From Candidatus Hodarchaeaceae archaeon (GTDB taxonomy: Archaea > Hadarchaeota > Hadarchaeia > Hadarchaeales > Hadarchaeaceae), in contig JASEGJ010000002.1 of assembly GCA_030018135.1 (NCBI GenBank), positions 1,230 to 65,229 of the forward strand: DNA of 64,000 bases, in the 5' to 3' direction. The position numbers and the translations under genes were made by a program. The number at the start of each line of letters is the position of its first letter. Position 1 is the stretch's first letter. Below are positions 25,037-35,043 of this stretch, piece by piece. The notes beneath the pieces are model-generated. The model saw nothing but the letters and a program-made list of their open reading frames with translations. It was not told where the DNA came from and did not search any database.

Positions 25037-25972
25037 TCACTCCTTTGCCACCACCCGAACTCCTAGTCCGGGCGTGGTGATAACTGTTTCGCATCCCACG
25101 CCCGCGCGCTTAAATGCCCTGCGCATCGCGCCCGCAATCTCTTCGGCGTCGCTGCCCACGTCTGCTATCGCGAATACGCTTGGGCCGGATCCCGCCAATG
25201 CCGCGCCGAGAGCACCGGATTTTAGGGCCGCGCGCTTGACATCGTGAAATCCGGGCACAAGGGGGATGCGAACAGGCTCTGCGATGCTATCCACCATGCA
25301 TCTGCCAAAAAGCTTGAGATCACCGGATTTTAGGGCCGCGACCATCGCGCTCGCTTTTCCCACGTTCGCAACGGCATCATGTAATGACACCTCCTTGGGT
25401 ACGAGTTGCCTACCCAACTTTGTGGGCAGCTCCATCGCCGGTTGAGCAACTACTATTTTCATCCGCGGTGGCTCAAGCCTGACGTACTCGAGCGGCTTGA
25501 TCGAGGTTATAATCGTGAACCCCCCCACTAAGGCTGGAGTTACGTTATCGTAATGGGCGCTACCGGCGATCTTGCCCTCCGCCTCTGCGGCCGCCTCTAT
25601 CAGCTGCGTATGGGGCAGCCCGCCATCAAAAAGTTCATTTGCGATCACCGCCCCAGCTACCGCCCCCGCTCCGCTGCTACCGATGCCGCTACCTGGTTTG
25701 ATCCCCTTTTTAATGGTAAACTCCAGCCCCTCATCGCGGCCCATCAGTTCCATCGCGCTCGATGCTGCTATGGAAACCGCATTCTTTTTTGGATCCCTTG
25801 AGATGCCCTCCGCCCCGACGCCGCTGATATTGAGTACCCTGATACCCCTCTTTTTTGAGATCCTGCCTTCAACGATGTCCACCGGCTCGGCGAGCGCTAG
25901 CCCGAAAACATCGAAACCCGGGCCTAGATTGGCGATTGTCGAAGGGGACGACACAACAACGCGCGAGACCAT
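25037..25972 (-). CDS. thrB: homoserine kinase
   Basis: GHMP kinase motifs (NLGPGFDVFGLAL, PGSGIGSSGA). Confidence 0.9.
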   Translation of the reverse strand: MVSRVVVSSPSTIANLGPGFDVFGLALAEPVDIVEGRISKKRGIRVLNISGVGAEGISRDPKKNAVSIAASSAMELMGRDEGLEFTIKKGIKPGSGIGSSGAGAVAGAVIANELFDGGLPHTQLIEAAAEAEGKIAGSAHYDNVTPALVGGFTIITSIKPLEYVRLEPPRMKIVVAQPAMELPTKLGRQLVPKEVSLHDAVANVGKASAMVAALKSGDLKLFGRCMVDSIAEPVRIPLVPGFHDVKRAALKSGALGAALAGSGPSVFAIADVGSDAEEIAGAMRRAFKRAGVGCETVITTPGLGVRVVAKE

Positions 25973-25991
25973 CGGATTCCCAGCCGTCTGA

Positions 25992-26564
25992 TCAAGCCCT
26001 AGCCCGCGGGTACCGCCTGCGGCGGGGTACCAATATTATCAGCAAGCCGCCCTTGATCTCAACTGTATACTCGCTCGGCGCCGCATCCGGCGGTAGCTCA
26101 AATGCCGCAAAATAGGCCTCGCCACTACGTTTGCGCGCGATGACCTCCAGCGTATTCCCCAGTTGCCTTACTTCAACGTCATTTTTGCCCACATCGGAAA
26201 CCTGCATCGTCAAAACTACTTCATTCAGCTTTTCGATTTTTCCGACATTAGTCTCAAGCATTTTCGTCACTGGCCTCACCTCGCGAGGTTTGGCCTCGGC
26301 CCCCAGCGGGGCACGTTTGGGCGCGGATGGAATTTCCTCGATAACTGGCGCCACCCTTGCTGGGCGCTCGCGCTCGCCTATTCTCGTTACCTTGACTTCG
26401 GGCTTGCCCTTGCCATCGTCCCTTATTTCTATCTTGAAACCGGAAACGCCCGGCATCCGCTCGAACCCACTTATGTCCACCCTCTCGAACTCGCGGTCGA
26501 AGTCCCTAAACATTCGCCGCATTCGCCTGAAAAACTCATCGAACGGGTCCATTGTCAGCACCAA
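25992..26564 (-). CDS. Hsp20/alpha-crystallin-like protein (divergent)
   Basis: The C-terminal half resembles an ACD (DVEVRQLGNTLEVIARKR...YTVEIKGGLLIILVPRR). The N-terminal part is not recognised. Confidence 0.45.
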   Translation of the reverse strand: MVLTMDPFDEFFRRMRRMFRDFDREFERVDISGFERMPGVSGFKIEIRDDGKGKPEVKVTRIGERERPARVAPVIEEIPSAPKRAPLGAEAKPREVRPVTKMLETNVGKIEKLNEVVLTMQVSDVGKNDVEVRQLGNTLEVIARKRSGEAYFAAFELPPDAAPSEYTVEIKGGLLIILVPRRRRYPRARA

Positions 26565-26610
26565 ACATCATTAAAGTCTTTAATCAGCATTTATATTTAG
26601 GAGTGGTGCC

Positions 26611-29052
26611 GTGATCGAAAAAAACTTTGTTGTCAGGGTCAGGCAGAAACTCGACATGCTGGAGGAAACCGATAAAAATGTGTGTTACATCGGTCGCAAA
26701 CGTGGCGTGTGGCAAAAGTATGGTTCCAAAGCGGCCCTGTTGATCGGACGATTAGCTGAGAAATCAGAAAGTGGCAGAGATAAATATGGTCAACATGCCC
26801 TGTTGGACAGCATAAGCCCACATGTCATCTTCATTTGTGGCGCACGTGGATCTGGAAAATCGTACACATTGGGTGTTATAGCCGAGGAAATTGCGCTGAA
26901 GAACCCGAGTCTAGCTGTAGTCATAATTGACACCCTTGGCGTCTTCTGGAGCATGAAGTACCCAAATAAGGAAAAATCCGAGGTCGAGATTCTCAAGGGT
27001 TGGGAATTCCAGCCAAGGGGCATACAAAATTTGTATGTCTTCATACCTGGTGGCTACGTTGACAGGGTGCCGCGTGAAACCTATGATGCCAGTTTTGCGA
27101 TCAAGCCCGCCGAGCTGAGCGTTGAGGATTGGTGCTTGACGTTTGGCATCGATCGATATAGCCCAGTTGGACTATTGATGGACCGAGCGATTGAAAAAGT
27201 GCGCAATGGGTATGCCAAGGTCGTACAAATATCTGGGAGGCGGGAAATTCGCAGGGTCACGGGAAAGGGGTCAAACTTCAGCATTGATGATCTAGTTGAG
27301 TGCATAGACTCGGACGTTGAATTGACATCGAAAAAAGCTGGCTTTAAGGTAGACTCCAGACGCGCTTTGATTTCAAGGCTAGTTGCCGCGCGGGCTTGGG
27401 GGATATTTGGCGAAGGTGGCACAGATGTCCACGAAATCGCTCGCGAAGGCAGGATCAATGTCGTCGACGTCAGTTTTCTCGAGGAAAATGTGCGTGCGCT
27501 TGTAGTCGGCCTGTTGGCGCGTAAAATAATGGCTGCTAGAATAATATCCACGCGTAAGGAGGCGGTTGAGCGATTGCTTGAAGGCCGCGTGATCGAGGGT
27601 TTGGAGGAAATACCGGCCACTTGGTTGCTCGTGGACGAAGCTCATGTCTTTGTGCCTGCCGGAGGCAAGAAAACGGCTGCCAGCGATTCCCTAATCGAAT
27701 TCGTGAAGCAGGGGCGCCGCCCGGGCCTGACGGCCGTCCTTGCAACTCAACAGCCCAGCGCTTTAAGCTCAAGGGTGGTTTCGCAAGTCGACATGGTGAT
27801 TATCCACAAGCTAATCTTCGAGGACGATATCAAGGCCGCATTTAGGCGAATACCGACTGTGTTGCCGCCCGAGTTCAGGGAGCCCGCATTTGTTAAAATG
27901 CTGCCCATAGGCATCGCTATAATCGGGGACAAGGAAACAAGTCGGGCGTTTGTTGCATCGATTAGACCACGCCTCAGCCAACATGAGGGGCGGGAGGCCA
28001 CCCCACAACTTGAGAGGCCCGCATTTATGGATAAGCGCAAGATCTGGGGAGAAGTCCGGGACGTAGTACTCGCTCGTTTGAGGGGGGCACAGGGACAACT
28101 TGTGGATTTAGCCGAGATCGAAGACATCATTAAAAATGTTTCGGTGAAGTACGGGGTTGAAATCCCCGTTCGCTCGGTTCTCATGGACCTCAAACGAGAT
28201 GGCTTTCTTGATTTTGATGAAAAGGTGGCTTGGGTGCCCACAAAAATGGCTGGGGTAGAGGCTGCGGCAATGGAGAAGGAAATTCAAGCCATCAAATTTA
28301 GCATAGGTCGCGACATTGTCCAACGTGCCGCTGACGGAGATCGCCGAAAGCGATATGGAATTTTTGGGGAGCGAGAAAGACTGGCCTCGCTTGAGCAAAT
28401 TTACTACCCACTTTGGCGCGCGCTGGTGGACTACTCCTCAAAGGAGGGGAAGTACGTCAACTTAAGGATATATGTGGACGCCGTAACTGGTGAAGTCCTG
28501 CTCTTGGAGCGCGGCAAGGTTGTGCGAAGCCACGGTGTTCGTGAGCTGGCCAAACTTGGGCCGGGGTCCCGCAAGGTGCTATTTTACCTCGCGCGGCGCG
28601 GGCGGACAACCAGCACCGAGTTGGCTGCAGCTCTTAAGATGAGTCAAAGGAGTATTGCCGTGCGCCTTGGTGAATTGAAGGCGCTTGGGCTGCTCAATGT
28701 CAAGGAAAAAGGAGGGCTTAGATCGTTCGAGCTGAGTTTTCCGCCCAAGCGACTCCCGGAATGCCTTACCGATGGAAGGATATTGAGCGCTGAAAACCTG
28801 CCAGAGCCTTCGAGTGTAAGAGTCGAAGTTGGTAGATGCACGGTCATCGACGACCAGGTCGACGCCAAGAAATTACAAAAAGTGATAGGGATATGGGAGG
28901 GAGCTGAAATTTCCGGGCATGAACTGGTTTACTATCCCTACTGGCGGGCGACGTTTGCGGATGGGCGAGGCAACACGAGAAACGCGATCTATGATGGCTT
29001 AACCGGAAAACGGGATGTCTACGCCGAGTACGTGCTGAGGCGAAGGATGTAG
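26611..29052 (+). CDS. HerA/FtsK-superfamily (DUF87-like) ATPase with C-terminal repeat + wHTH extension
   Basis: Walker A GARGSGKSY, Walker B WLLVDEAH, ATQQPS block. The C-terminal ~330 aa carry two YYP(L/Y)WRA...(D)xxTG repeats flanking a wHTH (RKVLFYLARRGRTTSTELAAALKMSQRSIAVRLGELKALGLL). Confidence 0.8.
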   Translation: MIEKNFVVRVRQKLDMLEETDKNVCYIGRKRGVWQKYGSKAALLIGRLAEKSESGRDKYGQHALLDSISPHVIFICGARGSGKSYTLGVIAEEIALKNPSLAVVIIDTLGVFWSMKYPNKEKSEVEILKGWEFQPRGIQNLYVFIPGGYVDRVPRETYDASFAIKPAELSVEDWCLTFGIDRYSPVGLLMDRAIEKVRNGYAKVVQISGRREIRRVTGKGSNFSIDDLVECIDSDVELTSKKAGFKVDSRRALISRLVAARAWGIFGEGGTDVHEIAREGRINVVDVSFLEENVRALVVGLLARKIMAARIISTRKEAVERLLEGRVIEGLEEIPATWLLVDEAHVFVPAGGKKTAASDSLIEFVKQGRRPGLTAVLATQQPSALSSRVVSQVDMVIIHKLIFEDDIKAAFRRIPTVLPPEFREPAFVKMLPIGIAIIGDKETSRAFVASIRPRLSQHEGREATPQLERPAFMDKRKIWGEVRDVVLARLRGAQGQLVDLAEIEDIIKNVSVKYGVEIPVRSVLMDLKRDGFLDFDEKVAWVPTKMAGVEAAAMEKEIQAIKFSIGRDIVQRAADGDRRKRYGIFGERERLASLEQIYYPLWRALVDYSSKEGKYVNLRIYVDAVTGEVLLLERGKVVRSHGVRELAKLGPGSRKVLFYLARRGRTTSTELAAALKMSQRSIAVRLGELKALGLLNVKEKGGLRSFELSFPPKRLPECLTDGRILSAENLPEPSSVRVEVGRCTVIDDQVDAKKLQKVIGIWEGAEISGHELVYYPYWRATFADGRGNTRNAIYDGLTGKRDVYAEYVLRRRM

Positions 29053-29064
29053 GGGTTGTGAGCT

Positions 29065-29697
29065 TTGGTAGTGCCACTGATCACCAGCGGCGGCTTGATC
29101 CTGCTCACCATGACGATCGGGCCCATCGGCGCCGTGCCGTATGCAATCGACCGCGGCCTATCCATCGTTCAGGCGACCGTGGTTGTGTGCTCCGTGAACG
29201 TCGCGCTCGTCCCGATGTGGTTCGGCATCATGGAAGTTTTTGGATATAGCAAGAGGTACCACAAATACCTCGCAAACAGGGCATTGAAATACGTCTCGCG
29301 TAGGTCTGCGGAATTTCAAAGGAACCTTCAGGTTTGTGTGGCCGAGTTCGAGCGGCGACTCGGGCACATCGGCTTTTTCATCGGCTTGACCGTCTTCTCC
29401 TTCATCTTCGGGGTCGTTTGGCCCTCGATCGGCGCCTACTTTCTAAACATCAAGAGGGTGCCTGCACTCATCTCGATCTCGATCGGCGCAATCGGTAACG
29501 CCATCCTCTTCGGGTTAGCCGCGGTCGGAATGCTCCAGTTCGTGCCTAGCCCGAGGGCTCTTTACATTGGGCTGATGATGCTGACGGTCGCGTTTTTGTT
29601 CTACGGAAAGCTAAGGGAAATAAGGGTCCTGCGATCTATAGTGCGCAGATTGGAGAGGAGGCGCGGCAGCGATTACTCTTCTTCAAGCTCCTCGTAA
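29065..29697 (+). CDS. integral membrane protein (possibly small-multidrug-export-like)
   Basis: 210 aa, 4-5 hydrophobic segments, 12 nt downstream of the HerA-like gene. Confidence 0.55.
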   Translation: MVVPLITSGGLILLTMTIGPIGAVPYAIDRGLSIVQATVVVCSVNVALVPMWFGIMEVFGYSKRYHKYLANRALKYVSRRSAEFQRNLQVCVAEFERRLGHIGFFIGLTVFSFIFGVVWPSIGAYFLNIKRVPALISISIGAIGNAILFGLAAVGMLQFVPSPRALYIGLMMLTVAFLFYGKLREIRVLRSIVRRLERRRGSDYSSSSSS

Positions 29698-29816
29698 ATT
29701 TTTTCCTCTTCTTCGTAGAGGCAGGTGCCATCCGAGTAGTAGTCGCACTCCGCACAGCACTCATTTTTGTTCTCGCAGTCGTCATACATATAGCACTTGG
29801 AGCAACATTTCGGCAT
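29673..29816 (-). CDS. cysteine-rich acidic micro-protein (47 aa), absent from the ORF track
   Basis: Translates to MPKCCSKCYMYDDCENKNECCAECDYYSDGTCLYEEEEKIYEELEEE. GGAGGT lies 6 nt upstream of the ATG, and a TTAAATAA box lies further upstream. Confidence 0.45.
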   Translation of the reverse strand: MPKCCSKCYMYDDCENKNECCAECDYYSDGTCLYEEEEKIYEELEEE

Positions 29817-29890
29817 TTACAACCTCCAAGAATTTTCGTTTCATCAACGCCAAACCCATTATTTAAGGTTTTCGCGCGCGCGGGGGTTGT

Positions 29891-30027
29891 AGAAAATTCG
29901 TATGTATTAAGCTTGCCGAAAAGAAGCCCGATTTAGCCTCCGTTCAATGCGTTATCCTACAAAACTGATGAAAAGAAGGTCAAAAAAAGCTCCGTTTTAA
30001 AAACAGCTTAATACGTACGAAAATTCT
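29891..30027. repeat. 23-bp imperfect inverted repeat separated by 91 bp
   Basis: AGAAAATTCGTATGTATTAAGCT (29891-29913) against AGCTTAATACGTACGAAAATTCT (30005-30027): 20 of 23 positions complementary. Confidence 0.6.
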
Positions 30028-30138
30028 GATTTTTAAGTGCCTGAATCTGGCCTATAGGGAAGTCGAGGGGGACGGAACGAAGCGATATATTTATAAGCTG
30101 TGCCTACCCTAAAGGCTCAATCAAACTTTGGTGATCAC

Positions 30139-30387
30139 ATGGAATTCTGCCCCAAATGCGGTAGCGTGCTTTTACCCAAAAAGGCGGGGCGCAGCACGAG
30201 GCTCGCCTGTCCGCGTTGCGGTTACAAGGGCAAACTAAAGAAGCCCACGGCTTACAAGATCAGCGAGAAGGGAAAGGAAGCCAAGGAAGTCGCAGTTGTG
30301 GAGGAGAAAGAAACGAAAAAGAAGAAGCGGCCGGAGCCGGAATACGAGCTTGAGCCGATCGAGTACTACGAGGATCTCTACGAGTAG
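30139..30387 (+). CDS. zinc-ribbon protein resembling the N-terminal domain of TFS/RpoM only
   Basis: MEFCPKCGSVLLP...LACPRCGY matches the Rpb9/TFS N-terminal ribbon. The C-terminal TFIIS-type ribbon is replaced by a K/E-rich tail. An ATATATTTATAA box lies upstream. Confidence 0.55.
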   Translation: MEFCPKCGSVLLPKKAGRSTRLACPRCGYKGKLKKPTAYKISEKGKEAKEVAVVEEKETKKKKRPEPEYELEPIEYYEDLYE

Positions 30388-31200
30388 CTAAACCTTGACG
30401 ACCGCCCCCTCCAGGGCCTTTCCGCACGCGCAGGAGCGCGCAGCTGGGATTCGGGAGATTGTGGAGAACAATAGCCTTTTGACCCGCTCTATATTGGTCG
30501 CCATCAGCTCCGCTACTTCTGCATGGGTCAGTTTTGCCCTTGAGATGCCCGCCGCAAAATTTGTGACCACCGCAACCGCCGCATAGCAGAGCTCAAGCTC
30601 GCGCGCCAGCACGCATTCGGGCACATTCGTCATTCCGACGAGATCGCAACCCAGGCGGCGTAGCGCTCTAATTTCGGCCGCCGTCTCGAAGCGTGGGCCA
30701 TCCATGCACGCATAAACTGCGCGGGGGTGGAGCTTGATTTTTAACTCGCGCGCCGCCTCGGTTAGGATGCTGCGAAGCTCAGGGCAGTAGGGTTCCGTTA
30801 CGTCGATGTGCACAACCCCCCTCTCGCCCCCCTCGTAAAACGTCGCAGGGCGCCGCTTGGTGAAGTCCACGAATTGGTCGAGCAATGCAAGTTCGCCCGG
30901 TCGCATCTTAGAGTTAATAGAACCGGACGCCGTCGTCGCCAGCACGCGCTTTACGCCGAGCTCGTGAAGCGCCCATAAATTCGCGCGGTAATTGACCATG
31001 TGCGGCGGCACCGTGTGCCCCTTGCCGTGGCGCGGCAAGAAGGCAACCCGGCGATCGTCAAGCTTACCAACGATCACCTCGGGAGATCTGCCGTACGGCG
31101 TGTCGACGACGGTAGCTTCGACATCCTGGAGAAGGTCTAAAGCGTAGACGCCGGAACCGCCTATGACCGCGATCTCCGCCTTCAGGTCATCACCCCCCAA
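30388..31200 (-). CDS. mtnP: S-methyl-5'-thioadenosine phosphorylase (PNP family)
   Basis: [11 protein letters not shown]-terminus, FLPRHG, and MTNVPE blocks typical of MTAP. Confidence 0.88.
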
Positions 31201-32721: not shown

Positions 32722-35043
32722 GTGGTGCACGTCAGCAAAATAGAGATGCGGGGTTTCAAGTCCTTTGGAAACACAAAAGTGAGCCTTCCCCTCTCTTCGT
32801 GTTTAACGGCGATCGTTGGGCCGAACGGTTCCGGAAAGAGCAACATAATCGAGGCTTTTTGTTTCGTCCTGGGGTGGATGAGCGCCAAGACCATGCGCGC
32901 CGAGAGGTTTTCCGATTTGTTGTTCAACGGCGGCAACGGTCAACGGCCGGCGCCATTCGCGGAGGTTTCGCTTCACTTCGACAACAGCGATGGAGTTTTG
33001 CCCGTTGACTCGAAAACCGTTGTGATAGCGCGGCGCGTGGATCGCAGCGGCAAATGCGTGTATAGACTTAATAAAAAGCGCGCGTCGCGACAGGAGATAG
33101 TCGACCTGCTCTCGAAAGTCATGTCGAGCCCGGGCGGTTACAATTTCATAATGCAGGGAGATGTCGACCGATTTATAAAGATGAATCCCCTCGAGCGCAG
33201 ATCGATCATCGACGACCTCGCGGGAATCGCGGAATACGACGAGAAGAAAGAAAAGTCGCTTGCGGAGCTTCAACGAGTCGAGACAAATCTTCAGAGCATG
33301 GGTGCCATCCTCAACGAGATCGGCATGCAAATGGAAAAGTTGCGCATAGAGAAGGAGGGGGCCATGCGCTACAGGCAACTTAAAAATCAGCTCGAGCAGG
33401 GGCGCGCAATGCTGCTGCTCGCTCAACAAAACATCTGCGGGCGGAAGCTGTCCGAAATTCAGCGCAAGATAAGTGCTAAAAACGGTGAACTCTCAGAGCT
33501 CCGCGATGAATCGCAAAAAATTGCAGACGCAATAAATCAACACGAAAGAAAAATCAAGCAACTTGATAAACTCATCCATGAAAAGCAAAGCGCGGACATC
33601 CTCGCCGCGGCCGAGAATTTGCGCGAGCGCATCCGCACCCTGACCGAGATGATAGCGTCCACAAACGACGAGCAAACCGCGGTTAAAACAAGAATCGCAA
33701 ACGTCCAAGCTGAGATCAAAAAAGTTAGCGGGGAGGCTCAAAGGGTGGCCGGCGAGGGACCCGAGCGATTGCTGAGAGAAATAGAAAAAATCTCAACGAA
33801 ATTTACGGAGCTCCGCGATGAGTTCGATGGCCTGCTCCAAACATTGGATAGGGCCGACCGCAGGTCTTTTACGGATGTGCGCAAGGTGCTTGGCCGAGCA
33901 CAAAAGGTGCTTCACGACATGCGCCCCATAATCAACGATTTCGATGGATGCATCAAGCGGACAACGGAGTTATGGAATAAGTTTCCACAGGTCCCCACAG
34001 GTGATTTACGCAAACCAGAATCTGAACTCCAGGGGCTGCAGGCAGATCTGATATCCCTAGAGGGACAGCACGTTCAGCTCGATAAAAGGTTCGAGGAACT
34101 GCAGCGAAAAGTGCAGGAGGCCAGAGTTGCCCTCGAGACCGCTTCTAAGCGAGGGGATGAGGTACAAAAATCCATCCGGGCAATGTGTGGGGAAAAGGAG
34201 AGCTCGCAGCGCAAGATATCGTCCTTGAGGGGAAGGGCCACGCGCATTCAGGAAGAAATTCAGGCCCTCGAGGGCAAGCTGCAGGAGTACCGCATTGAGG
34301 AAGCTCGCCTGCAGACCCAACTTGATGCGACTGAAAGGGAGTCAAAGCGCATTAAGGTAAGAGTGAAGGAAGTCAAACATGTCGATCCATCCAAGTTGGA
34401 GCGGGAAATAGAAAAGGTGGAGGCCGAACTTGAGACGATTGGGCCAGTTAACGAGCGAGCGATAAGGGACTTCAGAAACACAGAACGCCGTTACAGCGCC
34501 CAGAAGGCACAGTACGACAAGCTGGTGGGCGAAAGGCAGTCCATCCTCGATTTCATGCGGGAAATAGATCAAAAGAAGACCGAGGTCTTCATGAAGACGT
34601 TCAATGAAATATCCAAGAATTTTGGCAAAATCTTCAGCGAGCTCTCCCCGGGCGGCTCGGCGAGGCTGATCCTAGAGAACCCCGAGCACCCGCTCGATGG
34701 GGGGCTGGAGATAGAGGCAAAGCCCGCCGGCAAGGAGGTCGTACATGTCGGCGCCATGTCGGGCGGCGAGCGGGCCCTGACGGCGCTTGCGTTCATCTTC
34801 TCGATCCAGCGGGCGAGGCCGACCGCGCTCTACGTGCTCGACGAGATAGACGCTCACCTAGACGACGAAAACCTGCGACGTGTTGCGGAGATGCTGCACC
34901 GCTCCTCACGGGAAACACAAATAGTAGTCGTCACGCTGAGGGATTCGATGATGTCCGTTGCTGATCGCCTCTTCGGCGTAAGCATGGATAGCAGCGGGGT
35001 TTCGCGCATGGTGTCGGTCGAGCTGGCTGGCTTGGCTGCATGA
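32722..35043 (+). CDS. smc: SMC-type chromosome segregation ATPase, unusually short (773 aa)
   Basis: N-terminal head with GPNGSGKSN, C-terminal head with signature MSGGERALTALAFIF and Walker B LYVLDEIDAHLD. The coiled-coil middle is only about 435 aa. Followed by scpA and scpB. Confidence 0.88.
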   Translation: MVHVSKIEMRGFKSFGNTKVSLPLSSCLTAIVGPNGSGKSNIIEAFCFVLGWMSAKTMRAERFSDLLFNGGNGQRPAPFAEVSLHFDNSDGVLPVDSKTVVIARRVDRSGKCVYRLNKKRASRQEIVDLLSKVMSSPGGYNFIMQGDVDRFIKMNPLERRSIIDDLAGIAEYDEKKEKSLAELQRVETNLQSMGAILNEIGMQMEKLRIEKEGAMRYRQLKNQLEQGRAMLLLAQQNICGRKLSEIQRKISAKNGELSELRDESQKIADAINQHERKIKQLDKLIHEKQSADILAAAENLRERIRTLTEMIASTNDEQTAVKTRIANVQAEIKKVSGEAQRVAGEGPERLLREIEKISTKFTELRDEFDGLLQTLDRADRRSFTDVRKVLGRAQKVLHDMRPIINDFDGCIKRTTELWNKFPQVPTGDLRKPESELQGLQADLISLEGQHVQLDKRFEELQRKVQEARVALETASKRGDEVQKSIRAMCGEKESSQRKISSLRGRATRIQEEIQALEGKLQEYRIEEARLQTQLDATERESKRIKVRVKEVKHVDPSKLEREIEKVEAELETIGPVNERAIRDFRNTERRYSAQKAQYDKLVGERQSILDFMREIDQKKTEVFMKTFNEISKNFGKIFSELSPGGSARLILENPEHPLDGGLEIEAKPAGKEVVHVGAMSGGERALTALAFIFSIQRARPTALYVLDEIDAHLDDENLRRVAEMLHRSSRETQIVVVTLRDSMMSVADRLFGVSMDSSGVSRMVSVELAGLAA

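Follow-up and report, generated by a model that had tools for sequence, protein, structure and literature searches.

HerA, with its partner NurA, is the DNA end-resection translocase of archaea and Deinococcus. FtsK homologues have been reported to be absent from archaea, for which HerA is the proposed analogue, and it is still unresolved which factors move or clear archaeal chromosomes at division (PMC2958812). Here we describe an ATPase of 813 residues encoded in a stretch of 64,000 nucleotides (the window) on contig JASEGJ010000002.1 of Candidatus Hodarchaeaceae archaeon (assembly GCA_030018135.1). The source is a Hadarchaeota genome of 1.1 Mb, 93% complete (G000). We propose, with a probability of roughly 0.5, that the protein represents a stand-alone, vertically inherited family of archaeal HerA-clade ATPases that serves as a double-stranded DNA (dsDNA) translocase in chromosome maintenance. 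The gene and the parts of its product were mapped as follows.

26611-29052, forward strand: ATPase gene, 813 residues, whole open reading frame (ORF) from the ORF list, GTG start
26611-27996, forward strand: ATPase core, residues 1-462, short N-terminal beta region included (Pfam DUF87, VIA-align)
27964-27993, forward strand: RPRxSQHEGR signature, residues 452-461, invariant in 79 sequences, at the end of the core and before the disordered linker
28033-28245, forward strand: winged-helix-like domain 1, residues 475-545, predicted from the AlphaFold topology only
28273-28536, forward strand: repeat 1, residues 555-642, alpha/beta domain with YYPLW and DAVTGE
28537-28746, forward strand: winged helix 2 (MarR/ArsR-like), residues 643-712, Pfam HTH_24
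28810-29010, forward strand: repeat 2, residues 734-800, alpha/beta domain with YYPYW and DGLTGK, pLDDT approx. 90 in the model

The GTG start of the gene coincided in position with the ATG at which homologues of 63-65% identity begin, and the gene was found in a single copy in its genome. A first-pass annotation, made by a model that saw the DNA letters and the translated ORFs, had described a standard DUF87/HerA-type P-loop core, and this description was confirmed. DUF87 was matched in Pfam with E 1.6e-13, and the Walker A (GARGSGKSY, residues 77-85), Walker B (WLLVDEAH, residues 338-345) and ATQQPS (residues 378-383) motifs were all located. In an alignment of 79 homologues the Walker A (GxxGSGKS), Walker B (DEAH) and QQP motifs were invariant. 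The most distinctive motif of the family is the RPRxSQHEGR signature, which could act in trans between ATPase subunits. Conservation was 0.69 in the core vs approx. 0.37-0.46 in the other parts of the protein.

An AlphaFold model of the 813-residue protein, built from an alignment of 79 homologues, had a mean pLDDT of 89 and a pTM of 0.60. We compared the core of this model with known structures, among them the HerA entries PDB 4D2I and 9X1M. VIA-align placed it on Sulfolobus HerA (4d2i_B) with a Z of 32.4 and a root-mean-square deviation of 3.3 Å over 336 aligned residues (23% identity), model residues 10-463 spanning residues 81-472 of the HerA chain. Foldseek gave E 3.8e-19 for the comparison of the core with HerA. 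The other fold scores were Z 28.8 for Thermococcus HerA, Z 25-28 for HerAs of defence systems, Z 25.4 for VirB4, Z 18.7 for FtsK and Z 18.5 for TrwB. Approximately 65 residues are present ahead of Walker A, and they form a few short strands in the AlphaFold model. The structural alignment sets in only at residue 81 of the Sulfolobus HerA or residue 143 of the Thermococcus HerA. Because of the short leader and this late onset, the ATPase looks truncated and without a full HAS barrel. No N-terminal hydrophobic segment was seen in the ATPase sequence.

The first-pass annotation had also stated that a NurA partner is missing. This was correct for the ATPase locus, where no NurA, Mre11 or Rad50 gene was found to adjoin the ATPase gene, but not for the genome as a whole. 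The only NurA match of the genome is located at 8712-9551 of contig C42, directly upstream of a different HerA-like gene of 507 residues (L082:433-1956). Since this separate pair of NurA and HerA-like genes exists, the ATPase is a second paralogue of the HerA superfamily and not a displaced HerA. The NCBIfam equivalog models for HerA were not passed (NF040819, 49.4 bits vs 970; NF040937, 45.9 bits vs 800). We concluded that the ATPase core is a catalytically intact HerA fold that apparently lacks a full HAS barrel and has no NurA partner gene.

To the core a long C-terminal module is added, in which the first-pass annotation had seen two related segments on either side of a winged helix-turn-helix. 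This arrangement was borne out by the analysis. In the AlphaFold model the core is followed by a disordered linker (residues 462-473) and then by a putative winged helix, an alpha/beta repeat, a second winged helix, a second alpha/beta repeat and a terminal helix. When the family alignments of the two repeats were compared by hhalign, they matched each other with a probability of 96.6% and E 6.6e-10, thus the internal duplication is real. The HTH_24 match lies between them at residues 654-694 (E 2.2e-5, 24.4 bits vs a cut-off of 21.9). In the region of residues 475-545 the model shows a helix, a strand, two helices and two strands with a pLDDT of approx. 84-91, and a Pfam scan of these residues gave no match. 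From this topology the region is probably a winged-helix-like unit. The YYP motifs of the repeats are located at residues 598 and 774. In repeat 1, E628 and G642 were invariant across the family, and in repeat 2, Y774 and P776 were invariant in an alignment of 30 sequences and at least 90% conserved in the alignment of 79.

Conservation of the module extends over its whole length in Hadarchaeota, Methanofastidiosia, Theionarchaea and DPANN. Winged helix 1 and repeat 1 are joined by 9 residues in the window protein (between 546 and 554), whereas this link comprises approx. 40 strongly acidic residues (median charge -9) in most members of the family. Members from DPANN have in addition long N-termini of low complexity, so that the window protein represents the minimal version.

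To which domain family the repeats might belong was approached by several searches. The sole recurrent Pfam signal was PepSY, which stayed below threshold and was seen in 9 of 64 repeat-1 sequences (best E 0.012); repeat 1 of the window protein scored 15.6 bits vs the Pfam cut-off of 24. Folded alone, repeat 1 had a pLDDT of 86 and a first helix longer than in the full-length model, because of which the isolated model may be imperfect. A fold search of the PDB with repeat 1 alone gave at best a Foldseek E of 0.25 (cystatins) and a VIA-align wide Z of 3.0, and no PepSY structure was matched. Profile searches of the PDB sequences with either repeat gave nothing below E 0.1, and a search of the ESM Atlas with repeat 1 gave nothing informative (best score 0.82). 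The first-pass annotation had not recognised the repeat, and in the Pfam, PDB profile and fold searches no well-characterised domain was found above threshold either. We regard the terms PepSY-like or cystatin-like as a lead and not as an assignment.

With a profile of both repeats, 321 proteins were matched among 1.84 billion representatives. All seven of the seven matches of 500-700 residues that were examined carried an N-terminal DUF87. No stand-alone repeat protein of 47-163 residues was found in a word-seeded search. The exhaustive profile search gave some matches of 71-270 residues, which are either gene fragments or free domains; among these short matches, at least one cluster with a representative of 263 residues also contains a member of 1048 residues. 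As far as these searches show, the repeat is an accessory domain peculiar to this clade of ATPases. A compact sister form was also found. P0200, with 527 residues, has a minimal DUF87 core without the insertion of approx. 200 residues, followed by repeat, winged helix and repeat, and a fragment of the P0200 cluster has been labelled YkoI (the PepSY COG) by JGI. Another compact sister, P0173 with 598 residues, is WP_209689813.1 of the cultured Methanomicrobium sp. W14.

The composition of this module could also be read differently. The ATPase might not be a DNA pump but an ATP-dependent regulator or remodeller, either as a transcription factor that places its winged helices on specific operators under ATP-controlled oligomerisation, or as a protein-substrate motor whose PepSY-like repeats bind or inhibit a protein partner. 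The two winged-helix domains are of MarR/ArsR type and fast-evolving, PepSY-type domains act classically in protein binding or inhibition (their signal is weak here), and some homologues are named 'predicted transcriptional regulator' in the databases. Against this stand the core, which is by far the most conserved part of the protein and is nearest to bona fide dsDNA translocases, and the observation that no conserved target gene adjoins the ATPase. We therefore consider a regulator or remodeller possible but doubtful.

Full-length homologues (97-100% coverage, 38-65% identity) were found in Hadarchaeales, MSBL1, Methanofastidiosia, Theionarchaea, Iainarchaeota (also labelled Diapherotrites) and Micrarchaeota. 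In the phylum of archaeon AR10, 168 of 171 genomes with a completeness of at least 80% contained the ATPase, as did 24 of 25 genomes of a phylum labelled Micrarchaeota. In the class around Methanofastidiosum it was detected in 32 of 133 genomes; all 32 are among the first 34 genomes of the list, and the rest of the list is taken to be Thermococcales-like. Among Hadarchaeota 10 of 66 genomes contained the gene, including 3 of 46 in the family of the window (its own genome counted) and all seven genomes of genus g14, which comprises MSBL1-like Hadarchaeota of another family. Most genomes of Iainarchaeota type gave a second match, which in one of them (G067, C1:112954-114273) is an ATPase-only paralogue, approx. 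35% identical, in an open frame of 503 residues.

A maximum-likelihood tree of the core resolved three lineage-coherent clades, Hadarchaeota (support 92), Methanofastidiosia-like archaea (support 100) and DPANN (support 92). As the gene tree follows taxonomy, the ATPase looks old and vertically inherited. A recent transfer into Hadarchaeota from another phylum was considered and is unlikely, since the Hadarchaeota copies form one clade. We concluded that the ATPase belongs to the core genes of some lineages, with repeated losses in Hadarchaeota. In the databases the homologues are named 'DUF87 domain-containing' or 'ATP-binding protein', and a literature search found no paper on the family.

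To see what surrounds the gene, 80 loci encoding the family were surveyed and all neighbours were clustered. The neighbours were lineage-specific housekeeping genes, mostly on the opposite strand or convergent, and included GlmS, a GlmU-like gene, PGM, CofD-HAD and L44e. No conserved partner or effector was found next to the ATPase in the 80 loci. An SMC gene is present in the window at 32722-35043 on the forward strand, 3.7 kb downstream of the ATPase gene and on the same strand as it. SMC was also located 2-4 kb downstream of the ATPase in seven DPANN loci (L016, L020, L032, L036, L042, L049 and L071), which belong to one clade of the ATPase tree. This co-location represents at most two independent events, was noticed after the fact and has different intervening genes, so it is a weak hint. 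In genus g14 a GHMP-kinase-like gene was found directly upstream of the ATPase (L033:4018-4752, on the same strand; also L086, L088, L089 and L091). In the window a GHMP kinase is encoded two genes upstream of the ATPase on the other strand. The placement of the kinase may be a remnant of an ancestral position.

Several observations weigh against a role in chromosome maintenance, and part of them point to defence. The best PADLOC match of the ATPase was mad8, a defence-system ATPase (E 1.8e-18, 65 bits), with several defence HerA models next. An ATPase-only relative (32% identity, E 2e-57) was found in a BREX-like island on a Haloplanus plasmid (L129:4962-6131), where it lies between a gene with a BREX ATPase domain and a PD-(D/E)XK nuclease gene and overlaps a hypothetical gene upstream by 4 nucleotides. 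The ATPase is absent from 56 of the 66 Hadarchaeota and from the Thermococcales-like part of the Methanofastidiosum class. Close relatives can therefore do without it, an unusual property in a segregation motor. Winged helix 2 has a net charge of +9 in the window protein vs a family median of +2, thus it is only weakly basic family-wide; its conservation is also low (mean top-residue frequency 0.36), and protein, rather than DNA, may be its target. The mutual placement of the ATPase domains is uncertain, as the pTM of the model is only 0.60. DNA translocation, hexamer formation and DNA binding are suggested by the fold and the domain types.

The ATPase could accordingly be imagined as the motor of a HerA-type defence system against viruses or plasmids, in which the C-terminal module senses invader DNA or holds an effector. 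The PADLOC ranking, the structural scores of the defence HerAs, the patchy distribution in Hadarchaeota and the Haloplanus relative are in line with this. The distribution elsewhere is not, because nearly all genomes of two DPANN phyla and of Methanofastidiosum-like archaea carry the gene, mostly in a single copy, and its tree tracks taxonomy. The 80 loci hold no conserved effector but neighbours such as GlmS, GlmU-like, PGM, CofD, L44e and SMC, and the PADLOC partner models did not match the neighbours of the ATPase in the window. A phage search with the ATPase gave no match and a plasmid search gave no full-length match. Canonical HerA also outscored the defence HerAs structurally. A defence motor is unlikely in our judgement, and we favour chromosome maintenance because of the core-gene status of the ATPase in the tiny DPANN genomes and its housekeeping neighbours.

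By likeness to HerA, FtsK and VirB4, the chromosome-maintenance ATPase would form a hexameric ring and pump dsDNA through its pore with ATP. The C-terminal module would sit on one face of the ring, where the basic winged helix could engage or select DNA and the two PepSY-like repeats could form a gate, or a surface onto which a partner or neighbouring subunits dock. Its task would be in segregation, decatenation or dimer clearing, or repair, and not in defence. A more far-reaching version of this proposal is that the family is the long-sought functional counterpart of FtsK in a part of the Archaea, a soluble HerA-derived chromosome translocase whose C-terminal module recognises the polarity of the DNA or attaches to the division or SMC machinery, with the repeat as a new ATPase-specific regulatory domain. 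We find this version improbable; if true, it would explain why the gene is retained in minimal DPANN genomes.

Downstream of the ATPase gene two further genes are located, for which the following features were recorded.

29065-29697, forward strand: membrane protein gene, 210 residues, PF06695, ORF beginning 12 nucleotides after the ATPase stop codon
29673-29816, reverse strand: micro-ORF, 47 residues with 8 Cys and an acidic tail, convergent with the membrane protein gene
29822-29827, reverse strand: GGAGGT ribosome-binding site, 5 nucleotides before the ATG of the micro-ORF
29859-29872, reverse strand: AAAACCTTAAATAA, BRE/TATA-like box upstream of the micro-ORF

The first-pass annotation had correctly located a polytopic membrane protein here and had suggested that an ATPase tethered to it could be a device for DNA segregation, uptake or secretion. 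The membrane protein has approx. five hydrophobic segments and passed the Pfam model PF06695 (Sm_multidrug_ex) with 32.6 bits vs a cut-off of 30.7 over residues 22-144. Co-transcription of the ATPase and membrane protein genes is likely in G000 and in G009, the closest Hadarchaeales relative, because the gap is 12 nucleotides and no obvious promoter lies between them; it is probably simply positional. The promoter and terminator scan was of the bacterial type and uninformative for an archaeon, and an Rfam scan of 25500-31000 found nothing.

The proposed device did not hold up when the loci and genomes were compared. Apart from the window, the membrane protein gene was adjacent to the ATPase in one of the 80 family loci, that of G009, where the micro-ORF is present as well, so the neighbourhood is not conserved, which is the outcome that the first-pass annotation itself had named as refuting its proposal. 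The co-occurrence of the two genes is uncoupled as well. Among the 66 Hadarchaeota genomes the membrane protein was present in 36, mostly genomes without the ATPase, the ATPase was present in 10, and both were found together in G000 and G009 only. In genus g14 all seven genomes contained the ATPase and none of the seven the membrane protein. In G027 (90% complete) the GHMP kinase, an Hsp20-like gene, the membrane protein gene and the micro-ORF follow each other in the order of the window with no ATPase between, and the membrane protein gene is directly beside the Hsp20-like gene. The rare adjacency, the uncoupled phyletic patterns and the G027 locus do not support a tether between ATPase and membrane protein. 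Three PF06695 orthologues from one Hadarchaeota genus (G024:C31:1171-1752, G013:C62:23582-24163 and G016:C91:17863-18444; L102-L104) contain one in-frame TGA each, which could indicate a pseudogene, recoding or an assembly error.

A machine for DNA uptake, secretion or segregation like Ced or VirB4/VirD4, in which the ATPase is docked on the membrane protein and maybe joined by the Cys-rich peptide, is therefore highly improbable. The likely co-transcription in two genomes and the structural relationship of the core to VirB4 and TrwB would fit such a machine, but they are set against the comparisons above and against the membrane protein being a member of PF06695, a small export-protein family. 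The NCBIfam models CedD (18.9 bits vs a cut-off of 600) and VirB4_plasma (19.9 bits vs 590) were also far from being passed.

The micro-ORF was found largely as the first-pass annotation had given it, with 47 residues, eight Cys, an acidic tail and the GGAGGT site; only the spacing to the ATG is 5 and not 6 nucleotides. Its overlap with the 3' end of the membrane protein gene is 25 nucleotides. Three genera, represented by G000, G009 and G027, share a GGAGG site and a BRE/TATA-like box upstream of the micro-ORF, with the spacing conserved. The orthologue in G009 is 91% identical and that in G027 72%, and the comparison with G009 gave 17 synonymous and 4 non-synonymous codon differences. Public protein data contained five clusters of the micro-ORF. 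All eight Cys are present in its full-length copies, and the five Cys that two shorter entries cover are invariant. A search of the ESM Atlas with the micro-ORF gave nothing informative (best score 0.90, unnamed clusters). Judged from these sequence comparisons, the micro-ORF is a genuine gene on which purifying selection acts, and its two CCxxC...C halves suggest that the peptide may bind metal. It accompanies close orthologues of the membrane protein gene and not the ATPase. We concluded that independent genes encode the membrane protein and the Cys-rich peptide and that chance has placed them downstream of the ATPase in two Hadarchaeales genera. At the level of the window the result is thus mostly a correction, the supposed three-gene machine being an accident of gene order.

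At the level of the family, the ATPase is a concrete candidate for an unassigned chromosome-handling activity, as it joins a HerA-type motor to winged helices of its own and is kept in nearly all genomes (0.5-1.5 Mb) of two DPANN phyla. It also defines a new accessory domain, so far found only on DUF87 ATPases. New in this study are the internal duplication, the domain map, the restriction of the repeat to ATPases with DUF87, the counts that quantify the distribution, the compact sister form and the ATPase-free locus of G027. The compact relative in the cultured Methanomicrobium sp. W14 offers a route to biochemistry.

Among the known systems, the defence HerAs (Sir2-HerA, DUF4297-HerA and MADS mad8) share with the ATPase the DUF87 core, at the structural Z of 25-28 given above. 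In contrast to them the ATPase has no effector partner, is a vertically inherited core gene and stands in a housekeeping context. The repeats resemble PepSY domains (PF03413; YpeB, YkoI and protease propeptides) in having a helix packed against a small antiparallel sheet with a D-x-x-T-G-E/K hairpin at its end. Classical PepSY domains are extracytoplasmic. The repeats differ from them by scores below the Pfam cut-off, by the fusion to an ATPase and by the lack of a predicted membrane anchor or signal-like segment. With HerA the ATPase has in common the RecA-like core with the HerA-type helical insertion, DUF87 and presumably the hexameric ring, whereas it is distinguished by the apparent lack of a full HAS barrel, by the absence of adjacent NurA, Mre11 or Rad50 genes and by the extra C-terminal module of 340 residues. 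FtsK/SpoIIIE differ in more respects from the ATPase, which has a HerA-like core, no membrane anchor, and two winged helices and two repeats vs one gamma domain; no Pfam match of FtsK_SpoIIIE or Ftsk_gamma was found in the ATPase at E <= 0.01. Both nevertheless belong to the same superfamily (Z 18.7) and consist of a motor, a flexible linker and a C-terminal winged helix, so that in its layout the ATPase runs parallel to FtsK with its gamma domain.

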